Shown here: positions 12,752 through 49,757 of the stretch, in pieces
Layout of the letters: every line of letters begins with the position of its first letter
Position numbering within the stretch: position 1 is the stretch's first letter
Source of the DNA: Oceanispirochaeta sp.
Lineage (GTDB): Bacteria; Spirochaetota; Spirochaetia; DSM-2461
Length of the DNA stretch: 64,000 nucleotides
NCBI GenBank assembly: GCA_963666275.2
Contig: CAXXOA010000001.1
Coordinates: 2,176,001-2,240,000 of the forward strand
Reading direction: 5' to 3'
The notes under the pieces: generated by a model
What the model was told of the DNA's origin: nothing
The model's database searches: none
What the model saw: only the letters and a program-made list of their open reading frames with translations
Position numbers and translations under genes: made by a program

Positions 12752-12802
12752 TATATCTCCTTGTAAATATCGTAGACAGTCTGTTGGTGGGATGGATAAA
12801 AC

Positions 12803-13606: not shown

Positions 13607-13607
13607 A

Positions 13608-13973: not shown

Positions 13974-14016
13974 TGAGAATCATAAAATCCATATTAGTGG
14001 AGAATTCGAAGTGTTT

Positions 14017-19407: not shown

Positions 19408-19415
19408 AAGGATCT

Positions 19416-21827: not shown

Positions 21828-21847
21828 AATCTATCCTTCTAACGCCC

Positions 21848-23380: not shown

Positions 23381-23413
23381 AAATTTGATTCCTTCTTTGT
23401 ACCCGATTCATGT

Positions 23414-25014: not shown

Positions 25015-25026
25015 GAGAACTCCTTT

Positions 25027-25647: not shown

Positions 25648-25656
25648 AACAACCTC

Positions 25657-28789: not shown

Positions 28790-28797
28790 GGATTTCC

Positions 28798-29175: not shown

Positions 29176-29183
29176 ACTCCCTC

Positions 29184-30713: not shown

Positions 30714-30723
30714 CTCAACATCC

Positions 30724-31500: not shown

Positions 31501-31510
31501 TTTCGGTGTT

Positions 31511-31912: not shown

Positions 31913-31922
31913 ACCTGACTCC

Positions 31923-32429
31923 TTATCGAATTTGAATCCGGACCAGAGAGGAACGGTCTATGATGTAGTTCAATGTTTCTATTTCGGCCTTGAAAATATC
32001 TCCGTATTTTTCAAGGATAACAAAATCGCCCGCCTTTTCAGTAAACTGGGTATCAGAGTATATCTCTCCTTTCATTCCCGCATCGATCTGATAGGATTCG
32101 GGAAGATTCAGGAGTTCCTCTTCCGAAACCTGCAGCTCCGTTTCCGGGATTTCCCCGATAACCAGTTCATCATTGAATTTCAGATACAGGAAAGACTGCA
32201 CTCCCTGCAGAACCTCCACTTCCATCACCCGCCCCTGAACATACAGGGGAACAACAGGCAACGGAGCCTCTTCAATGACTTCCTCTACAACCTGAACTGC
32301 CGGAGGCGGAAAGAGAGCCTCCAGAACAAGAGGATCCTCGGGCTGCTCCTGAGGTTCTGCAGTTCTGCAGGACAGGAGACCTCCCAGGACAAAGAGCAGG
32401 AGAAAACTATTCAAATATCTTTTCTGCAT
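31923..32429 (-). CDS. Lipoprotein within the CIS operon
   Basis: Lipobox GLLSC, Pro-rich linker, beta-rich C-terminal domain. Confidence 0.75.
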   Translation of the reverse strand: MQKRYLNSFLLLFVLGGLLSCRTAEPQEQPEDPLVLEALFPPPAVQVVEEVIEEAPLPVVPLYVQGRVMEVEVLQGVQSFLYLKFNDELVIGEIPETELQVSEEELLNLPESYQIDAGMKGEIYSDTQFTEKAGDFVILEKYGDIFKAEIETLNYIIDRSSLVRIQIR

Positions 32430-33732: not shown

Positions 33733-33783
33733 TTTTAAACAGGAAAGGGGATTACCCGGGATTGAATCACCCCGGGTAAACAC

Positions 33784-34212
33784 CTATTTCCATTCTCCGT
33801 CTTCATAGACGATAGAAATGGTTTCCGTCATAGATCCCACTTCCTGACTGTTCAAGTCGGACATGGTCCATCCGCAGGGAACACATTCAAACAGGTTCCG
33901 TCTTGTAATTTCGCTCTGTCCGTCCCGGTCTACCAGAACAATAGAGACCGCTTTCCTTTCGGGAATCCCTCTTTCCACTGTTTTCCACCAATCCCGCAAT
34001 ACAGTATCTTTGGGATCGCAGTTTCGTGAAAAAGAGACCACATCGTACTTCACTTTTCCCGGGATTTTCCTGGCATTTCTATCGACCCCACCGATATCAT
34101 CAGTGATTTCGGCCGTAGCGCCCAGACCTGTTACAGAGGTAAAGTTACCATAATCCACACCGTCAATTTCGACTTTGAAATTGGTCTTCATCGTTGGTAC
34201 ATAATCAGCCAT
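33784..34212 (-). CDS. Tail tube protein 1 (T4 gp19-like)
   Basis: NFKVEIDG..F..VTGL, KIPGKVKY, RKAVSIVL, ECVPCGW. Confidence 0.9.
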   Translation of the reverse strand: MADYVPTMKTNFKVEIDGVDYGNFTSVTGLGATAEITDDIGGVDRNARKIPGKVKYDVVSFSRNCDPKDTVLRDWWKTVERGIPERKAVSIVLVDRDGQSEITRRNLFECVPCGWTMSDLNSQEVGSMTETISIVYEDGEWK

Positions 34213-34235
34213 CTTTCTTCTCCTTCTTAAAAGAT

Positions 34236-35459
34236 TTATTCAGACAATGTCTTTTGCGAAACGCGGAATACGACAAATTCGGCCGGTTTGGCCGGCGCAA
34301 TTCCCACTTCACAAACAACATAACCTGCATCAATGGATTCCGGAGGATTCAGTTCATCATCACAGCGGACAAAAAATGCCTCCTCGGGAGAATCGCCAAA
34401 CAGAGCCCCTTCTTTCCAGAGGCGCAAACAGAATGCCGTGAGATTCCTGACAATCTGCTTCCACAGGGACCGGGTATTCGGTTCGAACACCACCCAGTTG
34501 GTGCCGTCCTGTATAGCTTTTTCAACCATACAGAAAAGACGACGGATGTTAATGTATTTCCATTCCGGGTCGGAACTGAAAGTCCTGGCTCCCCAGACAC
34601 GGATGCCTCTACCGTCAAACTCTCTGATGCAGTTGATCCCTTTGGGATTCAGCAGTTCCTGCTCTGCATCGGTCAGATTGTATTTCAGCCCGGTAGCTCC
34701 CCGGAAAATTTCGTTGGCAGGAGCTTTGAAAACTCCTCTGGTGCTGTCTACCCGGCCGTACACGCCGGCAATACCACCGCAGGGTGGGGCATAGACATCC
34801 GTATCATTATCGGGATCGTACATTTTTACCCAGGGAAAGTAATAGGCTCCCATGGTAGAATCCCGTGGCATGGGCATGGTATCTATCCCCTTTTCCAGAG
34901 TTTCCGGTGCATCCAGGACGGCAACCCGAAATCTGTTTTTTTCACAGTGGGACAGGATGGCGTCCTGAGCCGCCGGTTCGGTAACGCCGGGAGCACAGAC
35001 TATGGAAATATCACCGATTTCATCAAAAGCACAGAGGCCGGACCTTTTTCCCGGTCCTTCATCTTTTCCTATGATCAATTTGGTAATCCCATCGGGATTC
35101 TTTACTATAAATGGTTCTTCCACTGTTTCAGGTTTTGCCTTGGCGTCCTTGGTCTGATCCTTCTCACTCTCTTTACCAGCCGCTTTCTGTGCGGGTATTT
35201 CCATCAGATTGTTGATATAGCACTTGGTGCCGCCATTCTGAAAGAACTGATATACCGAATGAGAGAGCCATCCGTTTTTGTGCATACCGCCGAAGGTTTT
35301 AGTATATTGCGTCCAGTTGGTAACGAGGGTGGCTTCATTAACAGGCCCTTTTTCTGCAACTCCAAGAAAACCCACCACATTGGTAGCACCGGCTTCCAGA
35401 GGTTTCGATCCGCTGGAAACTTCTTCAACATATACACCGGGTGTCAAATACTGTGGCAT
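34236..35459 (-). CDS. Tail sheath protein 1
   Basis: YLTPGVYVEEVSSG, RGVFKAPANE, VWGARTF, WVVFEPN, KPAEFVVFR. Confidence 0.95.
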   Translation of the reverse strand: MPQYLTPGVYVEEVSSGSKPLEAGATNVVGFLGVAEKGPVNEATLVTNWTQYTKTFGGMHKNGWLSHSVYQFFQNGGTKCYINNLMEIPAQKAAGKESEKDQTKDAKAKPETVEEPFIVKNPDGITKLIIGKDEGPGKRSGLCAFDEIGDISIVCAPGVTEPAAQDAILSHCEKNRFRVAVLDAPETLEKGIDTMPMPRDSTMGAYYFPWVKMYDPDNDTDVYAPPCGGIAGVYGRVDSTRGVFKAPANEIFRGATGLKYNLTDAEQELLNPKGINCIREFDGRGIRVWGARTFSSDPEWKYINIRRLFCMVEKAIQDGTNWVVFEPNTRSLWKQIVRNLTAFCLRLWKEGALFGDSPEEAFFVRCDDELNPPESIDAGYVVCEVGIAPAKPAEFVVFRVSQKTLSE

Positions 35460-35486
35460 AATCCGATTTCTCCTTCCTCAATTTCT

Positions 35487-36038
35487 TTATTTTTTTACAG
35501 CAGAAAACTGCCGTTGTATGACTCTCACCACCCGCTCTTCCTGAGACGAGTTTATTCCCAGCTGTATACACAGATCCCAGCGGTAGGGTTGAAAAGGCTC
35601 CAATTCCCCGGGAAGAGGATAGGAGGCATCAGAATCAAGAAGGTTCATCATGGCTTTTCCCGATTCATTGCCGTACCAGTTGTAGTCTCCCAGAGTAAAA
35701 AAGGGATTATCCTCCACACTCCGATGGATACGGGCGGAAACATCCAGTGCCCTGATGGCTGATTTAAAAGCCGGAACCAGGGCAACCCTCAGGTCCACCA
35801 TCCGGGGAACGGGAACCTGAACTTCTACAGAACTGTCCGGGGATTTCCCGCCGGGTTTTACGATTCTCAGAGTTTCATTTCTATTTCTGCCGTGTCCCTG
35901 TTTGATATCCAGAAGGACAATGACAATTTCCTCCCGGTATTTGCCTTCCCATAGAGAGACGGGGATTCGGGGAAACCATGAGACAAGAGCCTCCCGGATC
36001 TGATTCAGTGAATAACTGAGAACTGCAGCCTGATCCAT
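35487..36038 (-). CDS. Pvc16/DUF4255-like tail terminator (putative)
   Basis: Size and position upstream of the sheath gene; weak motif resemblance. Confidence 0.45.
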   Translation of the reverse strand: MDQAAVLSYSLNQIREALVSWFPRIPVSLWEGKYREEIVIVLLDIKQGHGRNRNETLRIVKPGGKSPDSSVEVQVPVPRMVDLRVALVPAFKSAIRALDVSARIHRSVEDNPFFTLGDYNWYGNESGKAMMNLLDSDASYPLPGELEPFQPYRWDLCIQLGINSSQEERVVRVIQRQFSAVKK

Positions 36039-39000
36039 CAGTATTCGGACCTCCTGTCTTCAATGACAAGTCCTTCAAGATAGAGGAGCTCATCGGGCCG
36101 GATAGAGATTTTATCCTGTTCCAGACCTGTTGATTCGTCAAAAAGCCTGATGTCCTCGACATGATGGATGGAGGAAATACGATCCAGAGTTCTCTGGATA
36201 AACTCTTTCTGAAGGGAAGCGCCGAACTCCCAGCCGTTTCCATCGTTTCCGCCTACAAGCGGATGCAGAACCTGTGCAATCGCGCTGTTTATCTGATCTT
36301 TTGCCGAACGGGCTTCTATGACCTCTTTTCGGAAAACCAGCTTCAGACGAATTTTGACGGACCGATACAAAGGGCCTGAAACCTGCAGTTTTGTCCCCAC
36401 CAGTTTCCTGACAGACAAATACTCTTTTACCCTGCGCAGCAGTTCCGAAGAAGGATAGAGCTTCTCTTTCAGATCGATAGATTCTCTTCCCGGCAAAATG
36501 ATCACGACCACCTCTCCCCGGCTGTTGACTTTGGGCAGACAGATGGAACGGCCCACCGACGAAGAGGCTTCATAGGAGAGCCAGGCAAAGTCCTCGGATG
36601 TGACAGCCCGGTTCCGGCTCCGGAATATTCCGGAAGCCCTTTTTTTAAGGTTTTCCAGTGATTCCAGGTCTGCTCCGCCCATGGCGGGCAGAGGGTTTTC
36701 CACACCCGCAAGGAAAGGAAGGCTCTCCCGGAGGACTTTAACCTGGCCTGCTCCGATATTTCCCCTGACTCCGCCACCGGCAGAGCACTGCCGTATAACG
36801 ATATTATTCTTTCCCCTGGGGGGAATAACGCCTTTTTTTCCATCTCCGAAGAGGATTTTGTTCTTTTGATAGTCCAGGACATAATGCCGGGAAACCGCCG
36901 TGGATTCATGAAAGTGCGGAACCTGATGGTAAGTTACCCAGACTTCCTCTTTTCCTGATCCGGTCTGTTCTTTTCGAACAGCTCCGGGACCTTCTTCCTG
37001 TTCTATGAGGCTCCGTTCGTTTTCGGGAGGATAGACATCCTCCCTTACCTCGATCACAATTCCCGGAAGAATTGGATAGCGGACCAGATCATACTCCTGC
37101 AGAGGCGATCCGCTGCCGGATCCCAGCTTTTCATTATAGAATGTCTGCTTGTTGGATCCGTAAACCGAATTCAGATGCACATTTTTTATGACAGGCATGG
37201 ATTCAAAACTGCCGTTTTCGAATACGACCCGCATCCAGCAGAGACTCTGTCCATACTGCTCTTCCTGTTTCCAGTCGACGGGGATCTGAAACTCAATGAA
37301 TCCTGATCTGTGAAATGAGTCGGTAAAATCGTTAACATTCAGCTTTTCCCAGGTATTATCCCGGCGGTACTCCCATCGAAGAGTGATCTGCCTGTTTTTC
37401 CTGTGAACCAGGTCTTCCCTGTAAAAATCCTGCCTGTCTTTTTCATCCAGTTCGAAAAAAAGAGAGGATTCTCCCGCAGGCAGTGGGTGTTCAAATCCGA
37501 AACCCGTGGCCGGTGCGCTTTCATCATTCACCGTGATTAATGTCACAGGATCTGTGGGTTCCTGCTTTTCTGCGGCTTCAAAATTTTTTCGTATTTCACG
37601 GGTGTGATCACTGTAGGCGAAATCCGAATATACCTTCAGATTCTCTACTGACCGGAACCCTGAATCATAGCTCAAACGCAAGCGGGAAACCACAGGAGGA
37701 ACAATCTTTTCAGAAAAATACCAGTTCCATTTGCCATCAGGACTCTGGGAGTATCCGCCCCCTTTGCCCAGATCCTCTACAGAAATTCTTACCCGGATCC
37801 AGGTGGACAGGACTCCGTTGACCTCTTTTTCCCGGATATCATCGGGACAGAGAAAAGAGATCACTCCGGACTCGCAAAATGCCTTTGTTCCATCCCGAAA
37901 AGAATAACTGCCGCTGGCATACGCCTCTTCTCCGGGGGTTGATACTCCCAGGATCATCCAGTCCTTTCCGTTCCAGTATTCATAACGCATGGAGAGAGAG
38001 TCTCCCGGAAAAGACGGGCTGACAGCTTCATTCAGAAGGACATTGATCTGAATTTTCGCTCCCTTCTTAGAAAAGACCTCATGGGATGAAAGATAGAAGA
38101 TATCATTCACAACAGGAGCTTCCTGAAAAGGCTTGAAATCCTTGTTCAGATCTAATGGGATAAAAGTTACAGAGTTGAAAAGACAGCTGTCCGGTGCCAG
38201 TCCGTCTCCGGAAAAGATAAGCTTTGTTACCATACCATGGCAGTCAAAACAGCTTTTTTCCCGCGGCATCTCGTCAAGACAGGCGCGGATATAAAACCCT
38301 TCCTGCCCGTCTATCTCTCTGGATGCAATGTTCAAGGGCCCGCTGAAATAGACTGTATTCTCTTTTCGTCTCTCCCCTTTATGAAAATAGGCGGGCTCAA
38401 CGGGCTGCCAGCGTTCGCCGTCCCAGAGAGACCAGCTGAAAAAGCGGATCAATTCACTGGCTGCTGAAGCAACCTCTCCTGCCTGTTTCATCTGTAGACA
38501 GACCAGATTGGATTCCTGGAGGAACTGAAAATCTGCCGACTGTATATACAGGTACCGGCTCACTTCATCCGAAGCCCGGAAGAGGGGGAACCCTTCCCCC
38601 TGGTGGTGAAGAGGTTCTGTAAAATCACTGATTCTGGATTGAAAAGAACTTATACAGGAGACAATCCGGTTTTCCCGGATCCCTATCCTTTTGTCTGTTT
38701 CAAACGATATGGCCTGATCGCCGTCATTCCGTCCAGTAGAGACACGAAAGCCTTTTTTGATATCCAGAAGCCCCTCGTATCCGGCTGTGGGCTTGAAGGT
38801 TAGAAGAACCCTTGAAGCCTGGGGAGAGGATAGAGAGAGCCCCATAAGATCAAGAAGAGCCAGATAGGTCTTTTCGGGAACTTTGTTTAAACGGAACAGA
38901 ACCATTTCTGTCATCCATGAGAAGAGTTCGACCAGGGTGACGCCGGGATCCGAAGGATTGTGGTTCGTCCATTCAGGGGTATAATGGGGAATCAAAGAGA

Positions 39001-39058
39001 GAGCTTCTTCGCGGATCTCTTTATATGTTTTATCATCCAAATTGGGACTGGGTATCAA
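36038..39058 (-). CDS. Baseplate J-like protein (Afp11-like)
   Basis: PNLDDKTY...YTPEWTNHNPSDPGVTLVELF, FGDGKKGVIP, GGADLESLE, RAVTSEDF. Confidence 0.92.
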   Translation of the reverse strand: MIPSPNLDDKTYKEIREEALSLIPHYTPEWTNHNPSDPGVTLVELFSWMTEMVLFRLNKVPEKTYLALLDLMGLSLSSPQASRVLLTFKPTAGYEGLLDIKKGFRVSTGRNDGDQAISFETDKRIGIRENRIVSCISSFQSRISDFTEPLHHQGEGFPLFRASDEVSRYLYIQSADFQFLQESNLVCLQMKQAGEVASAASELIRFFSWSLWDGERWQPVEPAYFHKGERRKENTVYFSGPLNIASREIDGQEGFYIRACLDEMPREKSCFDCHGMVTKLIFSGDGLAPDSCLFNSVTFIPLDLNKDFKPFQEAPVVNDIFYLSSHEVFSKKGAKIQINVLLNEAVSPSFPGDSLSMRYEYWNGKDWMILGVSTPGEEAYASGSYSFRDGTKAFCESGVISFLCPDDIREKEVNGVLSTWIRVRISVEDLGKGGGYSQSPDGKWNWYFSEKIVPPVVSRLRLSYDSGFRSVENLKVYSDFAYSDHTREIRKNFEAAEKQEPTDPVTLITVNDESAPATGFGFEHPLPAGESSLFFELDEKDRQDFYREDLVHRKNRQITLRWEYRRDNTWEKLNVNDFTDSFHRSGFIEFQIPVDWKQEEQYGQSLCWMRVVFENGSFESMPVIKNVHLNSVYGSNKQTFYNEKLGSGSGSPLQEYDLVRYPILPGIVIEVREDVYPPENERSLIEQEEGPGAVRKEQTGSGKEEVWVTYHQVPHFHESTAVSRHYVLDYQKNKILFGDGKKGVIPPRGKNNIVIRQCSAGGGVRGNIGAGQVKVLRESLPFLAGVENPLPAMGGADLESLENLKKRASGIFRSRNRAVTSEDFAWLSYEASSSVGRSICLPKVNSRGEVVVIILPGRESIDLKEKLYPSSELLRRVKEYLSVRKLVGTKLQVSGPLYRSVKIRLKLVFRKEVIEARSAKDQINSAIAQVLHPLVGGNDGNGWEFGASLQKEFIQRTLDRISSIHHVEDIRLFDESTGLEQDKISIRPDELLYLEGLVIEDRRSEY

Positions 39059-39452
39059 TTTCGCCTCGCTCCAGATAAAAAGGGTAAACCATGTTGAAAT
39101 AGGTATTGACTGACCGCAGGAGATAGCTAATTCCTACATGAAACTTTGTCTCATCTTCAGGATCCTCCCTGACTTCCACATTCTGCAGAATGATTCTATG
39201 CTCCCACTTTGTGAGGGCTTCTTCCACATAGTATTGAGCCAGAGACCTTGTCCGGGAATTGTTGGGTGCAAAAACCAGACTATTCAGATCACAGCCGAAG
39301 TCCGGCCTCATGACCCGTTCTCCTCTGGTGGTGCCCAGAATTATTTTTATAGACTCTTCCACCGATTCTTTACCAGCTATGCTTTTGATGCATCCCTGCG
39401 AGTCGATACCGAAATCTATTGAAAACCCTTTTCCCAGAAAAGAAGAATCCAT
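39033..39452 (-). CDS. gp25/GpW baseplate protein (Afp9-like)
   Basis: FLGKG, ESIKIILGTTRGERVMRPDFGC, NMVYPFYL. Confidence 0.93.
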   Translation of the reverse strand: MDSSFLGKGFSIDFGIDSQGCIKSIAGKESVEESIKIILGTTRGERVMRPDFGCDLNSLVFAPNNSRTRSLAQYYVEEALTKWEHRIILQNVEVREDPEDETKFHVGISYLLRSVNTYFNMVYPFYLERGEIDTQSQFG

Positions 39453-39765
39453 GAAAGGCAACTCCTTCAATCAATAAAATACGTTGTGTTATTTTTAAGA
39501 ATGAATTGAGAATTGTAAAGTAGCCTTTCAGTGCCATTTTCTGTAATACATTTCCCATATATCTACTACTTAAAGTATTTTTTTGTTTATTTATAACACT
39601 CAAATACTACTTTCAGGGCTTTTCAGTTATATGTAAATTGGGTTTTATTTTTAAATTCATAAATTATCATTGATATATTTATAAAATCCTGTATTAATGT
39701 TGTATGTTATTCAGATAACAAGAGATTATTTCAGTACGAGGATTATCAGAAAACAGGTAAAAAAA
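39453..39765. promoter_or_regulatory. AT-rich divergent promoter region of the two CIS operons
   Basis: Intergenic and AT-rich between head-to-head operons; exact boxes not assigned. Confidence 0.5.
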
Positions 39766-40408: not shown

Positions 40409-41041
40409 ATGAATGTTTTACAGACAGGTTTTGTTTCAGACAATCAGGATCCGGATCAGCTGGGGAGAGTCAAACTCTCCCTTTATCTGTCTGAAGTCGC
40501 CACAGAAACAGACTGGCTTCCTGTGATTCAGGGAATCGCCGGAGATGACAAGGGGATCTTCTGTCTTCCCGATACGGGGGATTTTGTGTTGGCTGTTTTT
40601 TCCGACAGCAGCCTGAAAAAGGGCTATGTTCTGGGCAGTACCTGGACCCAGGACGCAGCCCTCCCCCTCTCTGAGGAAAACGGTGACGCCGATCTGAACG
40701 GAGACGGCAACAACGCCTTGAGGATGATCAGAAGCAAATCGGGTCAGCGCATTATTCTGGACGATACCGAAGGGGCTGAGAAGATCCAGGTTCTCAACAC
40801 CGACGGCACCAGCCGGCTGGAACTCAATGCCGAAGAGGAGATGATCAGTCTGCTGAGCGAGCAGGATGTGACCCTGAATGCCAAAACAACAGTGAGCATT
40901 AGGACCGAAGAGATGACAGTAGAAACAGACGGAGACCTTACCATTCAGTGCGATAATCTGGGAGTGGAACCCGGTGGGGATGCCAATCTGAAAGGCAGCG
41001 GCGGAATAGTTCTGGAAGGCAAAGGCGTAGGGATAAACTGA
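40409..41041 (+). CDS. gp5/GpV spike protein (OB-fold plus short beta-helix)
   Basis: DNQDPDQLGRVK, LPDTGDFVLAVF, SKSGQRIILDD; AGGAGG RBS. Confidence 0.9.
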   Translation: MNVLQTGFVSDNQDPDQLGRVKLSLYLSEVATETDWLPVIQGIAGDDKGIFCLPDTGDFVLAVFSDSSLKKGYVLGSTWTQDAALPLSEENGDADLNGDGNNALRMIRSKSGQRIILDDTEGAEKIQVLNTDGTSRLELNAEEEMISLLSEQDVTLNAKTTVSIRTEEMTVETDGDLTIQCDNLGVEPGGDANLKGSGGIVLEGKGVGIN

Positions 41042-42927
41042 TGGCCTGGGGATTCAGCACTATACTGGAAGAGTTTAAACAGGATTACTATGACCCTACC
41101 GATCCCATTGACCGGATGGTATACGAGGAAAACCAGAGGAAACAGAACTTCTCCTTCGGGATCGTTACGGATAATCAGGACCCGGACAAACGGGGGCGTA
41201 TCAAAGTTCACTTACCCATGATTGCCAAAGACTACATCAGCAGATGGATCTGGATATTCCGCCCCTACGGGGGAGATAACAAGGGGATCTGGGCCCTGCC
41301 TGATATCGGTGATCAGGTGATGATCGCTTTTATCAGAGGCGATATCCATCACCCCGTCTGCCTCGGTGGAATGTATACTCCGAGGCACAGGCCTCCGATC
41401 AAAGACAATCCGGACAACAATATCAAAGCCATCAAAACCAAAGGCTGTTACCTTCTTATGGACGAGACTCCCGGAGAAGAGCGGATGGAAGCCTCCCTCA
41501 AGGACGGACAGATCCGCGTGGTGATCGATACCAAGGGCGTGCATCTGACCAATGAATTGGGAGGTATCGATATCCAGTGCCGGAAACTGACCATTGCCGG
41601 AGGGGCAGTCCAGTTTCAGACCGAAAAAGACCTGAGCCTCAAGACAGGTGGAAATCTGACCATGGAATCCCAGAGCACCCTGGCCCTCAGCGCTGGCGGA
41701 GAGATTACCATAAAGGGTAGCTCTGTCGACCTGAAAGGCAGCACGGGAGTCACCGCCGAGGGCAAACAGATAGCCAAGGAGAGTGATCCTGTAGCGGGTA
41801 TGGACCTGCACGACATAGAGGTTCCCTCCAGCAAAGGAACCCAAAAAGTCCCGGCTATCCCCCACCCTTATATGGGAAAACTGGTAGATAAACTGAGCGG
41901 CGATGTTTCTGTAGGCGGCAAAGCCGCAGCTACACAGGGCTCGAAAAGTGAATTCGGTGCTCCCGGTCATTTCCCGATGCTCCCGGGAATCAAGTTTTCC
42001 AGCAATCCCGACAATATGGGAGAGGTCACAGGCGGCTGCATCGACAGCGTAAAAATCAATGGCAACCCGGCGGCAGTTTTAGGCAGCACGGTCAGCACCT
42101 GTGACGATGCGGGCCAGAGCGACCACTGTACGGTAGTCGCACCCGGCACGGTAGTCACCTTCCCCATCCAGTACCCCGGGCAGGACCCGGAGCAGTACAA
42201 ACGGGACGGCGGATTGCCGATCAATGTGTCAAACCCTGCAGTGTATACTCCGGAAGATATTGCCTACAGGGATCAGCCCAAGAGCCTGACCGCCCTGCAG
42301 TGGAGTGCCAGCGAGGTCAACAAAGGCGAAGAGGTTACCCTCAGCTGTTCCACCAGCGGAGTGAAAGACGGTGCGGGGGTGATGTTCAGTATCTATCCCG
42401 AAGGGGCGAACACGGAGGTTGATCCGCCTTTGATGGATATCAGGGGCAAAAACAAAGGCAGCCGGGCTGAGGTGAAGTGGATTGCCAAAGACATTCGCAA
42501 ACCCGACGGGGATCAGCCTATGAAGTGGTTCTTTACTGCCTGGACGCTGTATTGTCCGAAAGAAGAGAGCGGTGAGATTCGGGTGCTGAATCCCAGAGTA
42601 ATAGATATGGAGTGGGAGAAAGACGCTGTATTCTGGGGAAATGAAATTAAACTTATTATCAATTCTTTTGAAGCAAGTAATTCGTCTAAAAATTACTCTT
42701 TAGAATTATGGGAGCAGGATATCTCAAATCCCGATGATTTCATTAACAACCAGGAAATTTCGATAACTGATGATTCCTTTGAAATAACCTACACATTAGA
42801 CTTTGATCTATCCCTTGTATCTGATTTTAACAGTGAAAAAGAGTACCAGTTGTACTGCAGAATTCTTGATAAAGAAGGAAATGAACTAAAGACCTCCCCT
42901 ATTTGTGAAATGCATGGAGATTACTAA
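41041..42927 (+). CDS. gp5/GpV-PAAR fusion with C-terminal Ig/TTR-like extensions
   Basis: DNQDPDKRGRIKV, LPDIGDQVMIAF; PAAR-like D..AGMDLH..PHPY..VGGKAAA..INGNPAA..TCDD; extension with LWEQD..PDDF. Confidence 0.85.
   Translation: MAWGFSTILEEFKQDYYDPTDPIDRMVYEENQRKQNFSFGIVTDNQDPDKRGRIKVHLPMIAKDYISRWIWIFRPYGGDNKGIWALPDIGDQVMIAFIRGDIHHPVCLGGMYTPRHRPPIKDNPDNNIKAIKTKGCYLLMDETPGEERMEASLKDGQIRVVIDTKGVHLTNELGGIDIQCRKLTIAGGAVQFQTEKDLSLKTGGNLTMESQSTLALSAGGEITIKGSSVDLKGSTGVTAEGKQIAKESDPVAGMDLHDIEVPSSKGTQKVPAIPHPYMGKLVDKLSGDVSVGGKAAATQGSKSEFGAPGHFPMLPGIKFSSNPDNMGEVTGGCIDSVKINGNPAAVLGSTVSTCDDAGQSDHCTVVAPGTVVTFPIQYPGQDPEQYKRDGGLPINVSNPAVYTPEDIAYRDQPKSLTALQWSASEVNKGEEVTLSCSTSGVKDGAGVMFSIYPEGANTEVDPPLMDIRGKNKGSRAEVKWIAKDIRKPDGDQPMKWFFTAWTLYCPKEESGEIRVLNPRVIDMEWEKDAVFWGNEIKLIINSFEASNSSKNYSLELWEQDISNPDDFINNQEISITDDSFEITYTLDFDLSLVSDFNSEKEYQLYCRILDKEGNELKTSPICEMHGDY
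42055..42597. repeat. Direct repeat shared with 46706-47248
   Basis: Near-identical DNA by eye over about 540 bp. Confidence 0.92.
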
Positions 42928-42937
42928 GGATATGCCA

Positions 42938-44035
42938 ATGAAACAGAAGATCCTCATACTCTTATGGCTTATTGCCAATATCAATATTTTTTCAAATGAT
43001 CTCTTCACTCCCAAGATAAATCATGGGGAACTGATAGAACTGAATGTAAACACCATCGCTCAAACTCTGGGTATAAGTGAAGAGGACGTTAAGGCCCATC
43101 CCCCGGAGAAAGAGGGATTCGGTCCCATAGAAAGTTATGGGGAATATCATGAATTCTTTCAGATCCTATCTATGATACCCCGCGGTTTTTTCATACAGGA
43201 TATACCGGAAGAAGGGCTTACTTTCTATCGGGTAATGTATGAGGTGGAACAGCAACATGCCATTACCGATGAAGTACTCTGTTATGAGCGAATATTCTAC
43301 CAGGATAGAGACACGGGGGAAATTATTCTGAGTTATGAAGACTATATGAACTATAAAGCCAGAGGTTGGCAGTTAAGTACACCGGAAATTGAGAAGGGTG
43401 TAATGCTTATTGTCAGAAACGGCAGCTATGACGGTGTTATGGTTTACCGGTTGTGGTATGAGGATGTTTACGAAATGGAAGATCCTCCCCGGTATGAGAC
43501 AAAAAATAGGCATGAAGCTTTTGTATACTTTTTTGGTGATGGAGAAAAAACAGCTGTTCCCGATAACTTTGAAGACCCGGATATCCATATTACCGCATCC
43601 AATCCTCTTATAGACAGGGATGATAGATTCAAATACACCATACAAAACGCTTTCGATCAGAATCCGGCCACCAGTTATGTGGAGGATACGGAGGATGACT
43701 TAATGGAGGTAAGTATTTCTTTTTCTGACGAGTATTACAATGCTTTATTGGATAAGAATATTTCAATTGTATCTAGACGAATTATAAATGGATATGCTCA
43801 GGATGGAAATTTATATCAACTAAACAATCGTATTAAAAAAGAAAAAAGTTATGAGTTAGTAGATAATTTCCTAGATTATCAAATAATGCCAAGAAAATAT
43901 ACTGAACTTGGTGTTGGTTATAGAATAATCGTCAAAGACATATATAAAGGATCAAAATACAACGATACATGTTTAGCAGAATATGATTGGAAAATGAATA
44001 TTGGAGATTGGATTTTTGGAGGTTATGATGAGTAA
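42938..44035 (+). CDS. Exported protein with NADase-type glycan-binding C-terminal domain, putative immunity
   Basis: Signal peptide; ASNPL...NAFDQNPATSYVE...INGY...NNRIK...KGSKYNDTCLAE. Confidence 0.7.
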   Translation: MKQKILILLWLIANINIFSNDLFTPKINHGELIELNVNTIAQTLGISEEDVKAHPPEKEGFGPIESYGEYHEFFQILSMIPRGFFIQDIPEEGLTFYRVMYEVEQQHAITDEVLCYERIFYQDRDTGEIILSYEDYMNYKARGWQLSTPEIEKGVMLIVRNGSYDGVMVYRLWYEDVYEMEDPPRYETKNRHEAFVYFFGDGEKTAVPDNFEDPDIHITASNPLIDRDDRFKYTIQNAFDQNPATSYVEDTEDDLMEVSISFSDEYYNALLDKNISIVSRRIINGYAQDGNLYQLNNRIKKEKSYELVDNFLDYQIMPRKYTELGVGYRIIVKDIYKGSKYNDTCLAEYDWKMNIGDWIFGGYDE

Positions 44036-46460
44036 AGCTCATATCCGGAATCTACCTATCCCTTATTTTTCTCAGAGAGAAAATATGTATGAATGGAAAG
44101 AGAGAGAACCAAAGGAAATTTGGAGTGATGAACAGGAGAAAGACATCCCAAATCCAAATGCTGGTAATGTAATTTACTGGACAGCTGAGGATGAAGTAGC
44201 TAATGCAAACCATAAAGAAGGAACACCTAAAAAAACAGAGACCATGTCCCTTTGCAGTTGTAACATAACCTGTCTGGCAATGCTGCTTCAATACTGCGGA
44301 ATAACCGATGATACTCCTGACGATATAATGGAAAAAATCTTCTCCGCAGCTACGGATGAAGATAATGATGAATTAAGGGCTATCAAGGAAGAGAATTATT
44401 CACATGGGCCATCGAATGTATTAAGCATAAGATCCCACAAACGAATTGTAAAAGCCTTATATAATATCGATACGGTTGATTTAGGTTACTCCAGCAACCT
44501 GGAATACCTTAAGGAAACAGTGGCCAGCGGTTTTCCTGTCATGATTAGTTGTGGAATTCTTAGACGTCACACAGAATCATTCTACCAAAGCATTATTGAT
44601 GGAGCAAGTAACGCTCATCTATACTCATACTCCCATGATGGAATAAGAAATGTTCATGATGATTTACTCTCAATTTACAGGAACAATTATGGGACCAGCT
44701 ATGAGGAAGATCTTTCTGAAGCTCTGGAAGAATTAGAAGCTGCATCTACAGATGAAGAAATAAACACTGCCAATCAGAAAATTGAAACGATTGAGAATCA
44801 GCAGGAACAAGTAAAAGAAGAAGTTCTTCAGTACTGTCTTGATGATTATAGAACACACGGTCATTATATCGTTGTAAGAGGATTTACCGAGGATTCTGTC
44901 ATAATCAACGATCCATGGGGTGATCCAACAGATTTCAATGGCAATTTTCCCAGCGATGGGAAGGGAAATTACTACAACAGTTCCCCCTTTGGAGATAATA
45001 TTACCATTTCCCTTGAGGACTTTGAAAAACAGTATAATGCAGACGGTACTCTTTGGTCGTCCTTAGTAATTAGACATAATCTGTGGAACTTCGTATTTGC
45101 TTCAAATACGGATAGAAGAGTCGTCCCTCCGCAAACTCTTCTTAATGGTTTTTATGAGCAAGAAATCTATGAGTACGGGGGTTACCCCATGAAAAGGAGT
45201 AATCTCTGGCATAATGGGATTCACCTGAAAGCCGACAACATAAGAGGAGTCTATCCTATCGGTCCTGGTCAAATCATCGCCGCAAGGATTCTGGATGAAG
45301 ACTTAAGCAACCCGGACAATAATCCTGCTCCAATTAATGGTAATAGATGTTTTGTTCTGATAAAACATAATTTAAATATCAACAGTGAAATCAAATCTTT
45401 CTTTTCACTATATATGCATTTAAAACCTGAAGAAAATCTGGAATCGAAAATATCAAACTATCCGGTACAACCCCTGCAAGCGGATTGGTTGGAGGAGATA
45501 ATCTTTCGTTCTAAAAAAGTCATGAAAGTAAAAGATAGTAGGACTCCCTCCATCTTCAGTGTTGAAGATGATAGAAATCTTGGCTCATTTACAGCAGGAA
45601 CATTATTCCCCTATGAGAGCTGTGATGATCAAAAAATCTACTTCAATTTTGAAATATCTGGACAAACAAGAGAATGCTACTCCTTTATGACAGATGATTT
45701 CTATATTTATCCAAGTGCCTATAAAAGCAATTCAGAAGAGATTATGGATAAATATCAAAGTGTTCTTGATTCATTAGCCCAGGGCAGAACAACATATTTC
45801 ACAGAACTGCCTGATCCTGTAATAGAAGTGACCGCGTCCACATGTATCGGAAAAACTGGAGTCTTTGGTGGTTATAATGCAGAAAATAGAGGAATGATTC
45901 ACCTTGAAATATTCAGCGACGATATTATTATACCTCAATTTGATGAATATGGGTTTAATCCAGAGCCTATCTATCTTGAGGATTCACCTACTGCAATGTG
46001 TAACAGAGAAGAAATGATAGGTCTTTTTGATAAATTTGGCTTATACAACACCATTGCAGAAGGATCACGATTTATCCATCTACAGGATGGAATCATTTCT
46101 AAAGCGGAAATGCAGGCGTATTATAATCAGAAGCCGGCAATTCTGAGAAATATGATTTGCCAACATAAAAGTGAATGGTATGAAGGAATCAATTGGGAAG
46201 ATGAGTTAGCGAATGCGGTGGGAGTCCCTTTTGGTATTCCTTTAATCCATAATGTATTGGAAGACAAATTAATAGAAAACCTGCAGGAGTATATTAACAG
46301 AATTTATAACCCCTACAAATGGCTGAATGATGGAGATTGTTTGAATGCCATGAATCTGGAATCCTCTGATAATCTAGCAAACGGGTGTGCCACATACTAT
46401 CACCCTATAAAATTCCTTGAATGGCTTGTGGAATATCAGAACCAAGTTATTACAGATTAG
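44028..46460 (+). CDS. Putative spike effector: C39-like cysteine peptidase plus M23-like domain
   Basis: PYFSQ, CNITCLAM, GHYIVVRG, INDPWG; then WHNGIHL, LYMHL, IHLEIF, HKSEW, YYHPIKF; no signal peptide. Confidence 0.75.
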   Translation: MSKAHIRNLPIPYFSQRENMYEWKEREPKEIWSDEQEKDIPNPNAGNVIYWTAEDEVANANHKEGTPKKTETMSLCSCNITCLAMLLQYCGITDDTPDDIMEKIFSAATDEDNDELRAIKEENYSHGPSNVLSIRSHKRIVKALYNIDTVDLGYSSNLEYLKETVASGFPVMISCGILRRHTESFYQSIIDGASNAHLYSYSHDGIRNVHDDLLSIYRNNYGTSYEEDLSEALEELEAASTDEEINTANQKIETIENQQEQVKEEVLQYCLDDYRTHGHYIVVRGFTEDSVIINDPWGDPTDFNGNFPSDGKGNYYNSSPFGDNITISLEDFEKQYNADGTLWSSLVIRHNLWNFVFASNTDRRVVPPQTLLNGFYEQEIYEYGGYPMKRSNLWHNGIHLKADNIRGVYPIGPGQIIAARILDEDLSNPDNNPAPINGNRCFVLIKHNLNINSEIKSFFSLYMHLKPEENLESKISNYPVQPLQADWLEEIIFRSKKVMKVKDSRTPSIFSVEDDRNLGSFTAGTLFPYESCDDQKIYFNFEISGQTRECYSFMTDDFYIYPSAYKSNSEEIMDKYQSVLDSLAQGRTTYFTELPDPVIEVTASTCIGKTGVFGGYNAENRGMIHLEIFSDDIIIPQFDEYGFNPEPIYLEDSPTAMCNREEMIGLFDKFGLYNTIAEGSRFIHLQDGIISKAEMQAYYNQKPAILRNMICQHKSEWYEGINWEDELANAVGVPFGIPLIHNVLEDKLIENLQEYINRIYNPYKWLNDGDCLNAMNLESSDNLANGCATYYHPIKFLEWLVEYQNQVITD

Positions 46461-46560
46461 GCCAAAACATTCCCATAGCCTGTTCCGGCGGCATGGGAAA
46501 TCCTGGAGAAAGGAGAAATTCTCCGGGTTAAGTATTGGAGGCGCCGCAGGGTCTGCCCCG

Positions 46561-46646
46561 GGACTGGTCGAAAGCAAGCTTTATGCTCGCCCATGCAACC
46601 CGGGTAGACGGGACCGTCTCAAAGCCTGACCCCGCCGCAGGCGGGG
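46561..46646. repeat. Small dispersed element related to 59561-59612, plus CCCGCCGCAGGCGGG palindrome
   Basis: ggactggtcgaaagcaagct..tgctcgcccatgca..agacggg vs gggctggtcggaagccagct..tgctcgcctatgca..agacggg. Confidence 0.6.
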
Positions 46647-46672
46647 AAACTCCCTAAAATCAGAGGATCAGC

Positions 46673-47593
46673 ATGATTACTGGCAGCAACATCAAAGCCA
46701 TCAATATCAATGGCAACCCGGCGGCAGTTTTAGGAAGTACTGTCAGCACCTGTGACGATGCGGGCCAGAGCGACCACTGTACGGTAGTCGCACCCGGCAC
46801 GGTAATCACCTTCCCCATCCAGTACCCCGGGCAGGACCAGGAGCAGTACAAACGGGACGGCGGTTTGCCCATCAATGTGTCAAACCCTGCGGTGTATACT
46901 CCGGAAGATATTGCCTACAGGGATCAGCCCAAGAGCCTGACCGCCCTGCAGTGGAGTGCCAGCGAGGTCAACAAGGGAGATGAAGTCACCCTGAGCTGTT
47001 CCACCAGCGGTGTAAGAGAGGGCGCGGGAGTGATGTTCAGTATCTATCCCGAGGGGGCGGATACGGCAACAGATCCCCCTTTGATGGATATCAGGGGAAA
47101 AAACAAAGGCAGCCGGGCTGAGGTGAAGTGGATTGCCAAAGACATTCGCAAACCCGACGGGGATCAGCCTATGAAGTGGTTTTTTACCGCCTGGACGCTG
47201 TATTGTCAGAAAGAAGAGAGCGGAGTTATACAGGTGTTGAATCCCAGGATAACAGATGTGTCATGGAAAAAGAAATCCTGTTTTCTGGGAGAGAAAGCGG
47301 AACTCACTATTAAGAGTTTTGAGATGAGTAATAAATCTCCTACAATCTCTATTGAACTTTGGGAAGAAGATGAGAATAGTCCTGATGATTTTGTACTTAC
47401 ACAGGAAGAAAAAATCGACTCTGACGAAATCTCAGTAACCATACCCTTTGATTTTTCACAGGAAGAACTGGAAAGACTCTCCGATTTTGATATGGACACG
47501 GAAGGTGATCTTGAAATATTTCCTGTTCTGAAATACCAGGATGAGAAACTGGACACGAAACCCGGAATAGTACGAATAAAGACAGGAGCCTGA
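46673..47593 (+). pseudogene. Duplicated 3' part of gp5-PAAR with an alternative last domain
   Basis: Begins mid-PAAR; near-identical for ~180 aa, then a diverged homologous domain (LWEED..PDDF). Confidence 0.8.
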
Positions 47594-47596
47594 GTT

Positions 47597-48751
47597 TTGA
47601 AAAAGTATTTTTTATTCTTATTACTTATGATCAGCACATACCTGAGCGCTACCACTTTAAACGAGTTTGTTCCCTACAATATGTATGACACGCCCCGGGA
47701 AGAGATAGAAGATTTCTACAACTTTGCCGTTGAGAATAATATTCCTACCGCGGGAATAACCACTCTGGATCAAATGCATGTTCTTGCCAGGGGAGTGAAA
47801 AAGCTCTTCCGTATATATAAGGAAGAGATAGGCGGACATACCTTCTATCACGCTTTCTATACAACAAGGCGTCACGGCCTTGCTCGAGAAAATGACCCCT
47901 ATTTTAGAGATGATATTACTGAGGACGATATAACTTGTGCAAGAATGATTGATCCCTGGGTGGATAATCTTTATGAATTTATGGATGACAAACCCGAGTT
48001 TGGCAAAATTGAAGATAATCCCTATCCAATGATTTACCAGAGGCTTTACCTGGAGACAGGGAATGGATTGAAATATCTGGATGAGGCGGAATATTTTCTT
48101 TCGTTCAACCGTCCGGGTCCCACAACAATTGGAATAGAAATTGGATCCCTGCAACCCTGGTCTCTGGAGGATGAATTTGGTTATTGGTCAGTTCTTTATA
48201 TTAAAAGTAAACAGTTAGGAATGTATGATTCAGTATCCTATGGACAATCTCATAGGGCCAAACGTGTTTACCTTGATGAGGAAGGTGAGAACATAGGACA
48301 GATAGATATTGAAGCCAGCAATCCTCTGATCGATTCCCAAAGACCTTTCCGCTATCTGATTCTCAACGCCTTCGATCAGAATCCGGCCACCAGTTATGTG
48401 GAGGATACAGAAGATGATTTGATGGACTTTGTAGGATTGTATTCAGATTCTTTACAAGTTTATCTACATAATAAAAAAACTGAATTAATAGGATTAAGAT
48501 TAGTTAATGGTTTTGCAAAAAATCAAAGACTATATTTTGAGAATAACATAATTACAAAAATTGGAAGTAATATCCTTAAAAAAACAATAGATTATCAGTT
48601 CATCAAGTATCCAGCACCTCAAATGTCTATTGGGATAGGATTTGGCGCAACAGAAATTAGTAAAGGAACAAAGTTTAATGACACTTGCTTAGCTGAGATT
48701 GATTGGCAACTAACAGATGGATCTTACCTTATAGGAGGTCGGTTTGAATAA
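47597..48751 (+). CDS. Exported NADase-type glycan-binding domain protein, putative immunity paralog 2
   Basis: Signal peptide; NAFDQNPATSYVEDTEDDLM identical to paralog 1, N-terminal part divergent. Confidence 0.7.
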   Translation: MKKYFLFLLLMISTYLSATTLNEFVPYNMYDTPREEIEDFYNFAVENNIPTAGITTLDQMHVLARGVKKLFRIYKEEIGGHTFYHAFYTTRRHGLARENDPYFRDDITEDDITCARMIDPWVDNLYEFMDDKPEFGKIEDNPYPMIYQRLYLETGNGLKYLDEAEYFLSFNRPGPTTIGIEIGSLQPWSLEDEFGYWSVLYIKSKQLGMYDSVSYGQSHRAKRVYLDEEGENIGQIDIEASNPLIDSQRPFRYLILNAFDQNPATSYVEDTEDDLMDFVGLYSDSLQVYLHNKKTELIGLRLVNGFAKNQRLYFENNIITKIGSNILKKTIDYQFIKYPAPQMSIGIGFGATEISKGTKFNDTCLAEIDWQLTDGSYLIGGRFE

Positions 48752-49169
48752 TTCTCGTATAAGAAATCTTCCAATTCCTTATTTTTCTCAACGGGAGAAT
48801 CTTTATTCTTGGAAACAAAGAGAGCCAGCATACAAAGGTATTGATGAAGTAACACAATTGCCAATTTCTAATCCCAATAAAGGTAACATCATCCAATGGA
48901 CATCAGAAGATGAAGCTATAGATCCAACCCATAAAGCAGGTACTCCAAAAAATCAAAGATCCCTGGCATATAGCAGCTGCAATATAACCTGTCTCTGTAT
49001 GGTGCTGAATTACCTGGGGATTTCCCATGAAACCCCGACTCAGATGCTTGAAAAAGCCTTTGATGTGAACGACCCCAAAAACACTGATTTTCTCAATCTT
49101 CTTAATGAAAGCGGATTAATCCTGAAACACAGGATTATCATCGGAAATGATATCTTTCACAAAGGTTGA
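48744..49169 (+). pseudogene. Truncated paralog of the C39-like effector
   Basis: IRNLPIPYFSQREN...SCNITCLCM present; His/Asp half missing; ORF reads on into the antisense udk 3' end. Confidence 0.8.
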
Positions 49170-49757
49170 AAGCACCTGCAGGGCGTTGGCGTTCATGCCC
49201 CCTTCGGGAATGATGATATCGGCGTAGCGTTTGGTGGGCTCGATAAACTCGAAATGCCCGGGGCGCACCACGTCCATATACTGCTTGATCACCGACTCCT
49301 GGGTTCTGCCCCGTTCGTTCACATCCCGCTGGAGCCGCCGGATAAAACGGATGTCATCGGGGGTATCCACAAAGATTTTAAGATCCATCAGATCCCGGAT
49401 GGGCTTTTCCGCAAAAATCATGATCCCCTCGAAGATAATGACCTTATGGGGTTCCACCCGGATGGTATCGTCCATCCTCCGGTGGTGGACAAAGTCGTAC
49501 TGGGGCATATCGATGGCTTTGCCGTTTTTCAGGTCCTTCAGATGCTGATACATCAGATCCTTGTCAAACGCATTGGGGTGGTCGAAGTTGAAGTCGGTGA
49601 TATTGCTGTTGGTGATAAACTCGGCGGACCGGTAGTAATTGTCCTGGGGAATAAACACAAAGTCCGAAATGCTCTCTGAGATCTTGCGGACAATGGTAGT
49701 TTTGCCCGATCCTGATCCCCCTGTAATGCCAATTAATACCGGTGCCTCTCTCATCAC
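49116..49757 (-). CDS. udk: Uridine kinase
   Basis: [50 protein letters not shown]. Confidence 0.95.

Follow-up and report, generated by a model that had tools for sequence, protein, structure and literature searches.

A spirochaete injection island of the eCIS type whose spike gene probably anchors two polymorphic-toxin units

Why should the spike gene of an injection system be followed not only by an exported protein and an effector, but also by a second 3′ end of itself, a second exported protein and a second effector start? The question is raised by the window, that is, the whole stretch of 64,000 nucleotides of Oceanispirochaeta sp. DNA analyzed here (features in Table 1). The injection island to the left of the spike encodes two sheaths, two tubes, a LysM tube initiator, a hub, gp25, baseplate J, an AAA ATPase, three DUF4157 proteins and a left cassette array (Pfam matches PF06841 and PF04984, twice each; PF19266 with LysM; PF05954; PF04717, twice; PF04965; PF04865; PF00004; PF13699, three times). 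The same gene set is present in the genomes G001, G002, and G014. By gene content, the island is an eCIS-type contractile injection system. Candidates for an Afp16-like cap or an Afp13-like fibre gene are 35487-36038, without a Pfam match at E 0.01, and 29184-30743, which matches NF053767 (CIS13) far below the cut-off. Conserved lipoprotein-like and exported genes also lie in the island (31923-33783) and may bear on whether the particle is held in the envelope or released. The T6SS core proteins TssC, Hcp, and TssM (PF05943, PF05638, PF14331) were not found in the host genome (G000, 97% complete), using profiles that detect the E. coli controls.

Table 1. Features of the spike locus and its surroundings (positions in the window).
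Feature	Position	Strand	Evidence or remark
Rest of injection island	5517..39470	-	Pfam and NCBIfam scans
Short gp5/VgrG OB-fold gene without PAAR, upstream partner of spike gene	40409..41041	+	PF04717 E 1.4e-16
Spike gene, 628 aa	41041..42927	+	PF04717 E 1.8e-23, PF05488 E 1.8e-5
Long repeat copy 1	42052..42637	+	Last PAAR motif and conserved Ig-like domain; 90.8% to 46703-47289
Exported protein 1, 365 aa	42938..44035	+	PF25302 E 2.2e-9; NF047619 above cut-off
62-bp repeat copy 1	43646..43707	+	In discoidin domain of exported protein 1; 92% to 48365-48426
Effector 1, 810 aa	44028..46460	+	PF13529 E 1.3e-12
Spacer	46461..46672	.	Several predicted hairpins and ~50-bp repeat dispersed in genome
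Orphan 3′ spike piece, 306 aa, open frame	46673..47593	+	Last PAAR motif, Ig-like domain, class A tip 2
Exported protein 2, 384 aa	47597..48751	+	N-domain unrelated to protein 1; discoidin domain
62-bp repeat copy 2	48365..48426	+	In exported protein 2 gene
Effector 2 stub, 141 aa	48744..49169	+	Homology ends near 49110; 50% over 122 aa to effector 1
Uridine kinase gene, intact, right island border	49116..49757	-	PF00485

An earlier note on this DNA had claimed that 42055-42597 recurs at 46706-47248, and this is borne out: 503 of 543 bases are identical without a gap (offset 4651), and BLASTN stretches the repeat to the borders given in Table 1, with E reported as 0.0. Counted in blocks, identity is ∼57/60 and falls to 16-35/60 past 42600; it forms a mosaic of ∼98% over 42060-42320, ∼80% over 42324-42426, and <60% after 42600. 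The codon differences comprise 23 synonymous and 11 non-synonymous ones in 180 codons. Spike and unit 2 ORF share 72% over 296 aa (spike aa 329-620), similarity being lost over the C-terminal ∼110 aa. From each copy the frame stays open into a final domain that has diverged, behind which come a gene with an N-terminally hydrophobic product and an ORF starting with IRNLPIPYFSQREN, in the order that had been described; the exported gene thus precedes the effector in both units, unlike in the left array. The latter likewise exists as claimed, with a different anchor gene and the effector ahead of the exported protein; the 3′ end of 16144-19407 is found three further times there, and a DUF4157 gene stands behind three of the four units. 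A likeness of 31 bp (41415-41445 and 46684-46714) was considered as the joint of an internal deletion and rejected, as the first unit 2 residues align gaplessly to the PAAR motif.

The short gp5/VgrG gene adjoins the spike gene in G001, G002, G014, and G023 also. The spike consists of a gp5 OB domain, a PAAR-type domain, a conserved Ig-like domain (aa ∼410-515) and a variable Ig-like tip of class A (aa ∼516-628), paralogous to the Ig-like repeat of the spike itself. Nineteen aligned spikes are conserved through WFFTAWTLYC, beyond which separate tip classes follow. An AF2 model of aa 410-628 (mean pLDDT 84) comprises two all-beta domains with Ig-fold matches, and the free tail past the last strand of tip 1 measures only about four residues in it. 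Whereas both window tips belong to class A and both effectors to one family, other tip and effector classes are present in relatives and at a third spike gene of the same genome. This full gene on another contig (G000:C2:624134-625876) ends in a prealbumin-like domain, and its transthyretin-like tip is paired with an NlpC/P60-like enzyme. Transthyretin-like extensions of VgrG and PAAR proteins are C-terminal loading platforms of the spike. A genome-contig scan with a single spike protein gave 36 pattern matches, none of them confirmed.

Effector 1 begins with a C39-like cysteine peptidase domain containing a helical insert and continues into a bipartite WHxxxH (WHIX-like) domain, which is interrupted by an SH3b-like insert; a C-terminal toxin domain is absent. 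PF13529 scores 48.9 bits (cut-off 24), the triad Cys78, His279, and Asp295 occupies columns conserved in alignments of 28 and 52 rows, and a wide structural alignment matches the fold to 3erv (Z 11.7, rmsd 3.8, 160 aligned). With the whole model, of which aa 620-770 are low-confidence, Foldseek found no PDB match at E 0.001. The closest folds to the C39-like domain include peptide-processing proteases; from the exported immunity gene and the enzyme classes of homologs, we infer that the domain is a peptidoglycan hydrolase. That IRNLPIPYFSQREN marks the effector for loading, as had been proposed, does not hold: it is covered by PF13529 matches, which start at aa 10-13 in homologs, and forms the start of the C39-like domain.

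The WHxxxH motif reads WHNGIH (aa 394-399). In three plasmid effectors, the WHxxxH region is matched by a profile of the first half of the WHIX-like domain (E 9e-14 to 1e-16 and 3e-9); these proteins are WHIX-like by motif and context and are not confirmed members of the list in PMC12135965. Iterated effector 1 profiles match both halves of one of them, WP_196222303 (E 9e-14 and 2e-6; Z 1e6), the gene of which lies directly 3′ of a T6SS vgrG. The second-half profile finds aa 652-760 of this protein at E 2.2e-6 and aa 355-415 weakly, and is weak on the other two (WP_006410441, E 0.009; a Raoultella protein, E 17). Both halves match vgrG- or PAAR-adjacent Burkholderia WHxxxH effectors. Of 150 first-half homologs collected, 124 have the second half too, and homologs carry amidase, GH19, muramidase, M23, or SLT domains to either side of the WHIX-like part. 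Judged from these profiles, the C-terminal domain of effector 1 is homologous to that of T6SS spike-adjacent effectors. Because no T6SS core genes were found in the host genome, the protein was filed as WHIX-like rather than as a T6SS WHIX effector.

Behind the same spike, G001, G002, G014, and G059 carry other tips and effectors, which agrees with the expectation that units at this anchor vary among relatives; in G329:C2, three spike genes are full, one is split and one is partial, and both their tips and the genes behind them differ. Tip A and a discoidin gene stand ahead of the C39-WHIX-like gene in seven of seven related loci that have upstream DNA and an intact effector start. These loci were collected by a search with the effector, and the count leaves out four weak Clostridia loci (L030-L033), L036 (a repeat of L027), L039 and L041 (no upstream DNA), and the L040 copy (a remnant). 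None of 17 PAAR-bearing spikes with other tips is followed by a discoidin or C39 match. Across relatives, tip class travels with effector class; as both are inherited as one DNA block, this covariation is no proof of contact. WHIX-like first halves also stand behind transthyretin-like and other tips (7/17 non-A spikes), so that tip A is not the only partner. Treponema-like loci contain partial spikes and effector stubs of the same kinds as the window. L028 has, in order, an immunity end, a partial spike with tip A, a discoidin gene, a 95-aa effector stub, a further discoidin gene, and a full effector; L040 has an effector remnant, a partial spike with another tip, and another effector. In the frameshifted assembly of L029, a WHIX-like part follows tip A directly, and discoidin gene and peptidase are both missing. 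Separately, 16 of 38 effector-start proteins shorter than 400 aa measure 74-146 aa; they may be stubs or contig ends and were not counted as evidence.

Unit 2 also consists of three open frames. Its effector, however, which was thought usable as an alternative, is only a stub that resembles effector 1 along its first ∼122 aa and has the catalytic Cys, missing the His, the Asp, and the whole WHIX-like predicted loading domain; the remainder was not found in the genome by tblastn. The stub and the convergently oriented uridine kinase gene overlap at their ends, and one contig each in X1 and X2 spans the junction of stub and border. The congener G004 has the kinase at full length (94%), 3.5 kb from a homolog of window 4853-5344. 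Since effector 2 is cut to 141 aa at the island border, unit 2 is read as an orphan immunity module and not as a spare weapon. The open frames, together with the mostly synonymous changes, point to a recently functional allele.

If unit 2 were instead a silent reserve, recombination via the 543-bp repeat would provide the spike with a new tip selecting a different cognate effector. The long anchor of high identity, the open frames, the hairpin-rich spacer ahead of unit 2, and the tracking of tip and effector classes across relatives would suit such a switch, and a comparable one is cited for Salmonella Rhs orphans in PMC5361080. Here, however, switching would delete effector 1 in exchange for a stub without His, Asp, and loading domain, the assembly contains no remaining part of effector 2, and the two tips, like the two effectors, are of one kind. 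This explanation is therefore unlikely and disfavoured for this strain, although it could apply to an ancestor or a sister strain whose second effector is complete.

As to the spacer, its predicted folding is as good in 8 of 200 shuffles (z −1.83), its ∼50-bp repeat has 24 matches in the genome (itself included), and its first hairpin also occurs 3′ of the immunity gene in G001 and G002. Rfam returned only a sub-threshold match to the spacer and no family at gathering score, and a promoter/terminator scan of it stayed at chance level (promoter-like sites, 1 found vs 0.6 expected). It is likely a transcription break before unit 2. That unit 2 is expressed independently and works without recombination, the 306-aa piece as a free adaptor and its exported protein as extra protection, is quite unlikely: promoter-like sites do not exceed the chance level, the piece corresponds to the spike from aa 328 onward and is missing two thirds of the PAAR domain, and the corresponding pieces of L028 and L040 have no homologous start or contain a stop. 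In its favour are an ATG preceded six bases earlier by AGAGGA, ribosome sites of good quality in front of each of the three unit 2 genes, a stand-alone 282-aa ORF resembling the piece on an 11.6-kb contig (P0208), and tip A in its own ORF in L042.

Exported protein 1 has a signal-peptide-like start, a variable N-domain, and a C-terminal NADase-type discoidin domain that is 46% identical to that of exported protein 2. The N-terminal hydropathy peaks (11 residues) are 2.78 and 2.31, respectively, without a later stretch. Where the amidase or C39 domain is N-terminal, the exported gene is upstream (the window, L025, and the seven loci), and where an M23 domain is C-terminal, it is downstream (L021, L026, L040); the same rule of toxin-domain side and immunity-gene side applies to Awe1 (PMC12135965). 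Thus, the exported gene would lie upstream of effector 1 because the toxic domain is N-terminal. Exported protein 1 is likely the immunity protein, and exported protein 2 likely an orphan one. Alternatively, the discoidin proteins would be glycan-binding partners in targeting or translocation, and the WHIX-like part an M23-type hydrolase. The discoidin family is named from the translocation module of a streptococcal NADase, the WHxxxH region resembles M23 domains in fold (lysostaphin and LytM domains, Z 7.4-7.9), and homologs score weakly with PF01551. Nevertheless, this is very unlikely, given that the gene is retained and duplicated beside stubs (the window and L028), as is the pattern for orphan immunity, that its side follows the toxic domain, that its counterparts in other cassettes encode C-terminal SH3 or YARHG domains, and that WHIX alone is non-toxic and sufficient for secretion (PMC12135965).

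The sharp, patchy borders of identity, rather than even decay, support recombination of units. In X4-X6 (one other sample; depth 2-4), one contig each continues from 42331-43690 (104 differences) into 48410-48554 (7 differences), and the next contig is 97% like 48549-49024. The joint, 43690 to 48410, lies within the 62-bp repeat; these contigs are a chimera of units 1 and 2, whichever the direction of the event, which they do not give. Together with the related loci, they uphold the proposal of a cassette array on a 3′ spike anchor with recombination between its units. The long repeat would be the 5′ anchor and the 62-bp repeat a second one. An assembly artefact, or an old tandem duplication in neutral decay, is hardly credible: repeats are prone to mis-joining and unit 2 is incomplete, but X1 and X2 contigs from an independent method (possibly the source sample) cover 43660-46771, 47152-48400, and 48379-51000 with no differing letter, and decay is at odds with the identity mosaic and the mostly synonymous changes.

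The locus is, then, probably a polymorphic-toxin array of two units at an eCIS-type spike: unit 1 a complete set of loader, immunity protein, and cell-wall toxin, unit 2 a displaced older unit with a truncated effector and an intact immunity gene. New units would arrive via homologous recombination at one of the anchors (the conserved PAAR-Ig region, the discoidin domain, or the effector start) and displace the resident unit downstream, which would be kept for its antidote. Tip A, the C-terminal end of the spike, would bind the WHIX-like domain of effector 1, and the C39-like domain would cut peptidoglycan peptides in the target periplasm. The predicted loading of the toxin would use a domain whose descriptions to date come from type VI secretion, which bears on how eCIS-type particles choose spike cargo and on their antibacterial use. 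One genome offers natural matched and mismatched pairs, tip A with the C39-WHIX-like effector, and the transthyretin-like tip on C2 with the NlpC/P60-like enzyme.

More tentatively, in spirochaetes without T6SS, the eCIS-type island may be an interbacterial weapon, probably cell-anchored, on which swappable Ig-like or transthyretin-like tips of the spike (and of the hub protein) load WHIX-like effectors; WHIX might be an M23-fold groove turned receptor for the spike tail, with a third, N-blade-only class that has upstream immunity and is swapped via three nested anchors. If true, WHIX would extend beyond T6SS, a class with only an N-terminal toxin would be added (as set apart from the classes described in the text of PMC12135965), and free-living and gut spirochaetes would have an antibacterial injection system. 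In the papers searched, no title or abstract opening described WHIX with eCIS or such spike arrays in spirochaetes or Treponema.

Compared with known systems, the island shares sheath, tube, LysM initiator, hub, gp25, baseplate J, AAA ATPase, and DUF4157 with eCIS of the Afp-PVC kind (PMC8213781). According to the same paper, in the main text of which no word begins with "spiroch", antibacterial toxin-immunity pairs occur in a few eCIS loci, and immunity genes are absent for most antibacterial eCIS toxins; the spike-anchored orphan arrays, regular immunity genes, and WHIX-like effector of the window differ from what is described there. SalCIS is a membrane-associated eCIS, and SalCIS-like operons are said to lack variable regions (PMC13266070), unlike the window island with its variable cassette arrays.

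WHIX subclass II (Awe1, AwiU/AwiD, VgrG4; PMC12135965) resembles effector 1 in the bipartite WHxxxH domain, the N-terminal peptidoglycan-type enzyme, the upstream immunity gene with signal peptide, and the position directly 3′ of a spike gene. Unlike its members, effector 1 is N-blade only, without C-terminal toxin or downstream immunity gene, its host has no detected T6SS core (T6SS is found in over 98% of WHIX genomes), and its spike fuses gp5 to PAAR and has Ig-like domains at the end; Table 2 of PMC12135965 lists no C39-like domain among the N-terminal classes. The tail of Aeromonas VgrG4 binds WHIX using 11-14 residues (PMC12135965), more than the free tail modelled for tip 1 offers. A constant front and a variable rear of the loader gene, swapped together with the downstream effector module, are also known from chimeric Tap-1 adaptors (PMC4557670) and VgrG17-Tae17 (PMC11796386); unlike those platforms, tip A belongs to the spike's own repeat family, and its binding of the effector is predicted. 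Closest in logic are the T6SS displacement arrays of V. cholerae and the Rhs/CDI orphan modules cited with them (PMC5361080), with an upstream anchor, a new module adjoining it, the old effector cut or lost, and the old immunity gene downstream. In contrast to these, the orphan here retains a 3′ spike part that has a separate tip, along with the 5′ remnant of an N-terminal toxin, there are three anchors (spike, discoidin/effector start, and WHIX second half), and the machine is of the eCIS type.

The repeat reported in the earlier note is present (503 of 543 bases identical; 90.8% in the BLASTN alignment of 42052–42637 with 46703–47289), and each copy indeed runs into a diverged last domain: the 628-aa and 306-aa proteins align at 72% over 296 aa, and the likeness is lost in the last ∼110 aa. 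Downstream of both spike ORFs comes a gene that has a signal-peptide-like start and an NADase-type discoidin domain and then, as claimed, an ORF opening with the motif quoted there, which is the opening part of the C39-like domain of effector 1. Exported proteins 1 and 2 have only the discoidin domain in common (46% over 147 aa), and a 62-bp repeat lies within this region of both genes.

Positions of the repeat copies and of the genes of both units in the window
Feature	Position	Remark
Repeat copy 1	42055–42597	inside 628-aa ORF 41041–42927 (unit 1 spike)
Exported protein 1	42938–44035	
Effector 1	44028–46460	810 aa
Repeat copy 2	46706–47248	inside 306-aa ORF 46673–47593 (unit 2 spike piece)
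Exported protein 2	47597–48751	
Effector 2 stub	48744–49169	

Judged from its sequence, unit 2 is an orphan, the leftover of a module and no loaded spare, and its earlier description as a usable second effector cassette had to be given up: effector 2 comprises 141 aa, keeps the cysteine alone of the catalytic residues, and its remainder was not found elsewhere in the assembly. Its homology ends no more than a few bases from the kinase stop codon. The spike piece begins at spike residue 328; most of the PAAR domain is therefore missing. Ribosome sites are kept at all three unit 2 genes, and the spacer before them holds hairpins and a repeat dispersed in the genome. Contigs from sequencing runs X1 and X2, which may be the source sample of the assembly, show no differences from the window across the spacer or the effector 2/kinase junction. 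Another contig in these runs, absent from the assembly, agrees with the effector 2 gene over the first ∼75 bases of that gene (48744–48818) and then diverges.

Recombination between the units, also proposed before, is supported by a unit 1/unit 2 joint in runs X4–X6 (one other sample; contig depth 2–4): each has a contig following 42331–43690 and then jumping to 48410, inside the 62-bp repeat, the direction of the event not being given by the contigs. The next contig is 97% like 48549–49024, with other sequence beyond in X4 and X5. Within the long repeat, identity is patchy and 180 codons carry 23 synonymous and 11 non-synonymous changes, as expected for alleles exchanged piecewise. Among related loci, L028 has another immunity gene, a partial spike with tip A (the variable Ig-like class found in the window), a discoidin gene, a 95-aa effector stub, a discoidin gene, and a full effector; in L040, an effector remnant is followed by a partial spike with a different tip and by a different effector. 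Orphan pieces in L025, L026, and L027 start at the end of the WHIX-like domain described below and bear new C-terminal domains, each with its own exported genes, and contig G329:C2 carries several spike genes with different tips. The orphan spike pieces of L028 (466–520) and L040 (5420–5480) share their starting position in PAAR, and both are preceded by one and the same ∼19-bp foreign sequence; this sequence is found again after the last effector of L028. At L077–L078 (G329:C2:30266–56215) and L086:7952–9706, gpD-like hub genes, a third anchor gene of this system family, are fused to Ig-like and transthyretin-like tips and have cassette arrays of their own, partial copies included.

The spike is a fusion of a gp5 OB domain and a PAAR-type domain. 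Nineteen aligned spikes are conserved up to about aa 515 and beyond it fall into separate tip classes: class A (both window copies and the homolog P0013), a transthyretin/prealbumin-like class to which, among others, this genome's third spike gene belongs (G000, C2:624134–625876), and a further class in relatives G001 and G002. The predicted model of aa 410–628 (9 alignment rows; mean pLDDT 84) consists of two tandem all-beta domains with Ig-fold matches, and tip A resembles the conserved domain preceding it, as a diverged repeat would. Tips ahead of 770–810-aa effectors (window tip 1, with its end at 42898–42927, P0208, and six Treponema-like loci) end in Asp plus an aromatic residue, an ending absent from tip 2 and the L042 tip. 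The third spike gene (90% identical over aa 1–518, prealbumin-like tip) stands alone in the stretch G000:C2:624134–629537 (L001:10135–15538), with a copy of the dispersed spacer repeat 0.8 kb upstream and, behind it, a 777-aa NlpC/P60-like effector (weak Pfam match), a YARHG exported protein, and two transposase-like gene sets. In G001 and G002 (L015:10460–14346, L018:7025–11421), the third tip class precedes ∼1000-aa proteins without a Pfam match and ankyrin-repeat exported proteins.

Residues 1–345 of effector 1 make up a C39-like peptidase, in which Cys78, His279, and Asp295 are conserved throughout the family; the remainder contains WHNGIH (394–399) and, further on, another conserved block that ends near residue 795. 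According to PMC12135965, WHIX is a bipartite WHxxxH domain that suffices for export by the T6SS and binds VgrG4 at its last 14 residues; the domain may bear an N-terminal toxin with its immunity gene upstream. Profiles from effector 1 homologs matched a Burkholderia effector, encoded directly behind a vgrG gene, in its first and its second half (E 9e-14 and 2e-6 at Z 1e6), and two other plasmid effectors, their second half more weakly. The C-terminal part of effector 1 is predicted to be WHIX-like, a label short of WHIX proper. Among 44 matches scanned, homologs have amidase, GH19, muramidase, M23, or SLT domains on one side or on both. In effector 1 and its close family, no more than a few residues follow the second half, and these proteins therefore have an N-terminal blade only. 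The fold predicted for the WHIX-like part resembles M23/LytM domains (Z 7.4–7.9, middling), which the accessible part of PMC12135965 does not state for WHIX itself. The domain (aa 395–795, window 45210–46410) threads into this fold; its histidines 395, 399, and 625 are conserved, and an SH3b-like insert sits near aa 490–560. On this model, the domain may be a repurposed peptide-binding groove.

All seven loci in which upstream DNA is present and the effector start is intact have tip A together with a discoidin gene (of 16 returned loci, 12 were examined). No discoidin or C39 match lies downstream of the 17 PAAR-bearing spikes with other tips, seven of which also precede WHIX-like domains. The link between tip class and effector class is tight, but the genes are inherited as one block, and the window's two tips are of one class, as are its two effectors. 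By analogy with the Aeromonas case, the tip would bind the effector. The exported discoidin proteins are likely immunity proteins, a prediction made because the side of the exported gene in related loci follows that of the toxic domain and because the gene is retained beside stubs: upstream with N-terminal C39 (window, L027, L028, L034, L035, L037, L038, L042) or amidase (L025), downstream with C-terminal M23 (L021, L026, L040). This side rule would explain the reversed immunity/effector order pointed out in the earlier note.

The window's gene set is of the eCIS type (two sheaths, two tubes, LysM initiator, hub, gp25, baseplate J, AAA ATPase, three DUF4157 genes), with named homologs from Spirochaetales and Treponema records; the T6SS families PF05943, PF05638, and PF14331 were not found in G000 (97% complete). 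Of 61 relatives, 7 have the spike extension, as do 21 of the class's 401 searched genomes, this genome included in both counts. The congener G004 has no match to it and 3.5 kb between the uridine kinase gene and the homolog of 4853–5344; ∼5.4–49.1 kb is therefore an island, with its right border at the kinase stop codon. Conserved accessory genes unusual for eCIS (27623–33783: vWA-zinc ribbon, FHA, DUF1257, lipoprotein-like and exported proteins) possibly serve as envelope anchor or in regulation. A LuxR-type regulator heads the spike operon (39697–40389) and a radical-SAM-like 4Fe-4S gene lies amid structural genes (23414–23968), both conserved in relatives. In the left array (5517–19407), the 3′ end of 16144–19407 occurs in four nested copies; three precede DUF4157 genes, effectors (CHAP-like, unknown, M23), and exported proteins, and the last, adjoining another dispersed repeat (6830–6890), has lost DUF4157 and effector and kept the lipoprotein-like gene alone.

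Of the earlier note's overall picture, the repeats, unit layout, and recombination stand; the loaded spare does not. PMC8213781 describes few immunity genes beside eCIS toxins and PMC13266070 a membrane-associated CIS that lacks variable regions; the nearest loader precedents are found in PMC4557670 and PMC11796386. The locus probably combines the working of the Vibrio T6SS displacement arrays (PMC5361080) with that of spike-tail loading of WHIX effectors in T6SS, and differs from both in its eCIS-type machine, its N-blade-only effector, and the spike piece kept in the orphan.
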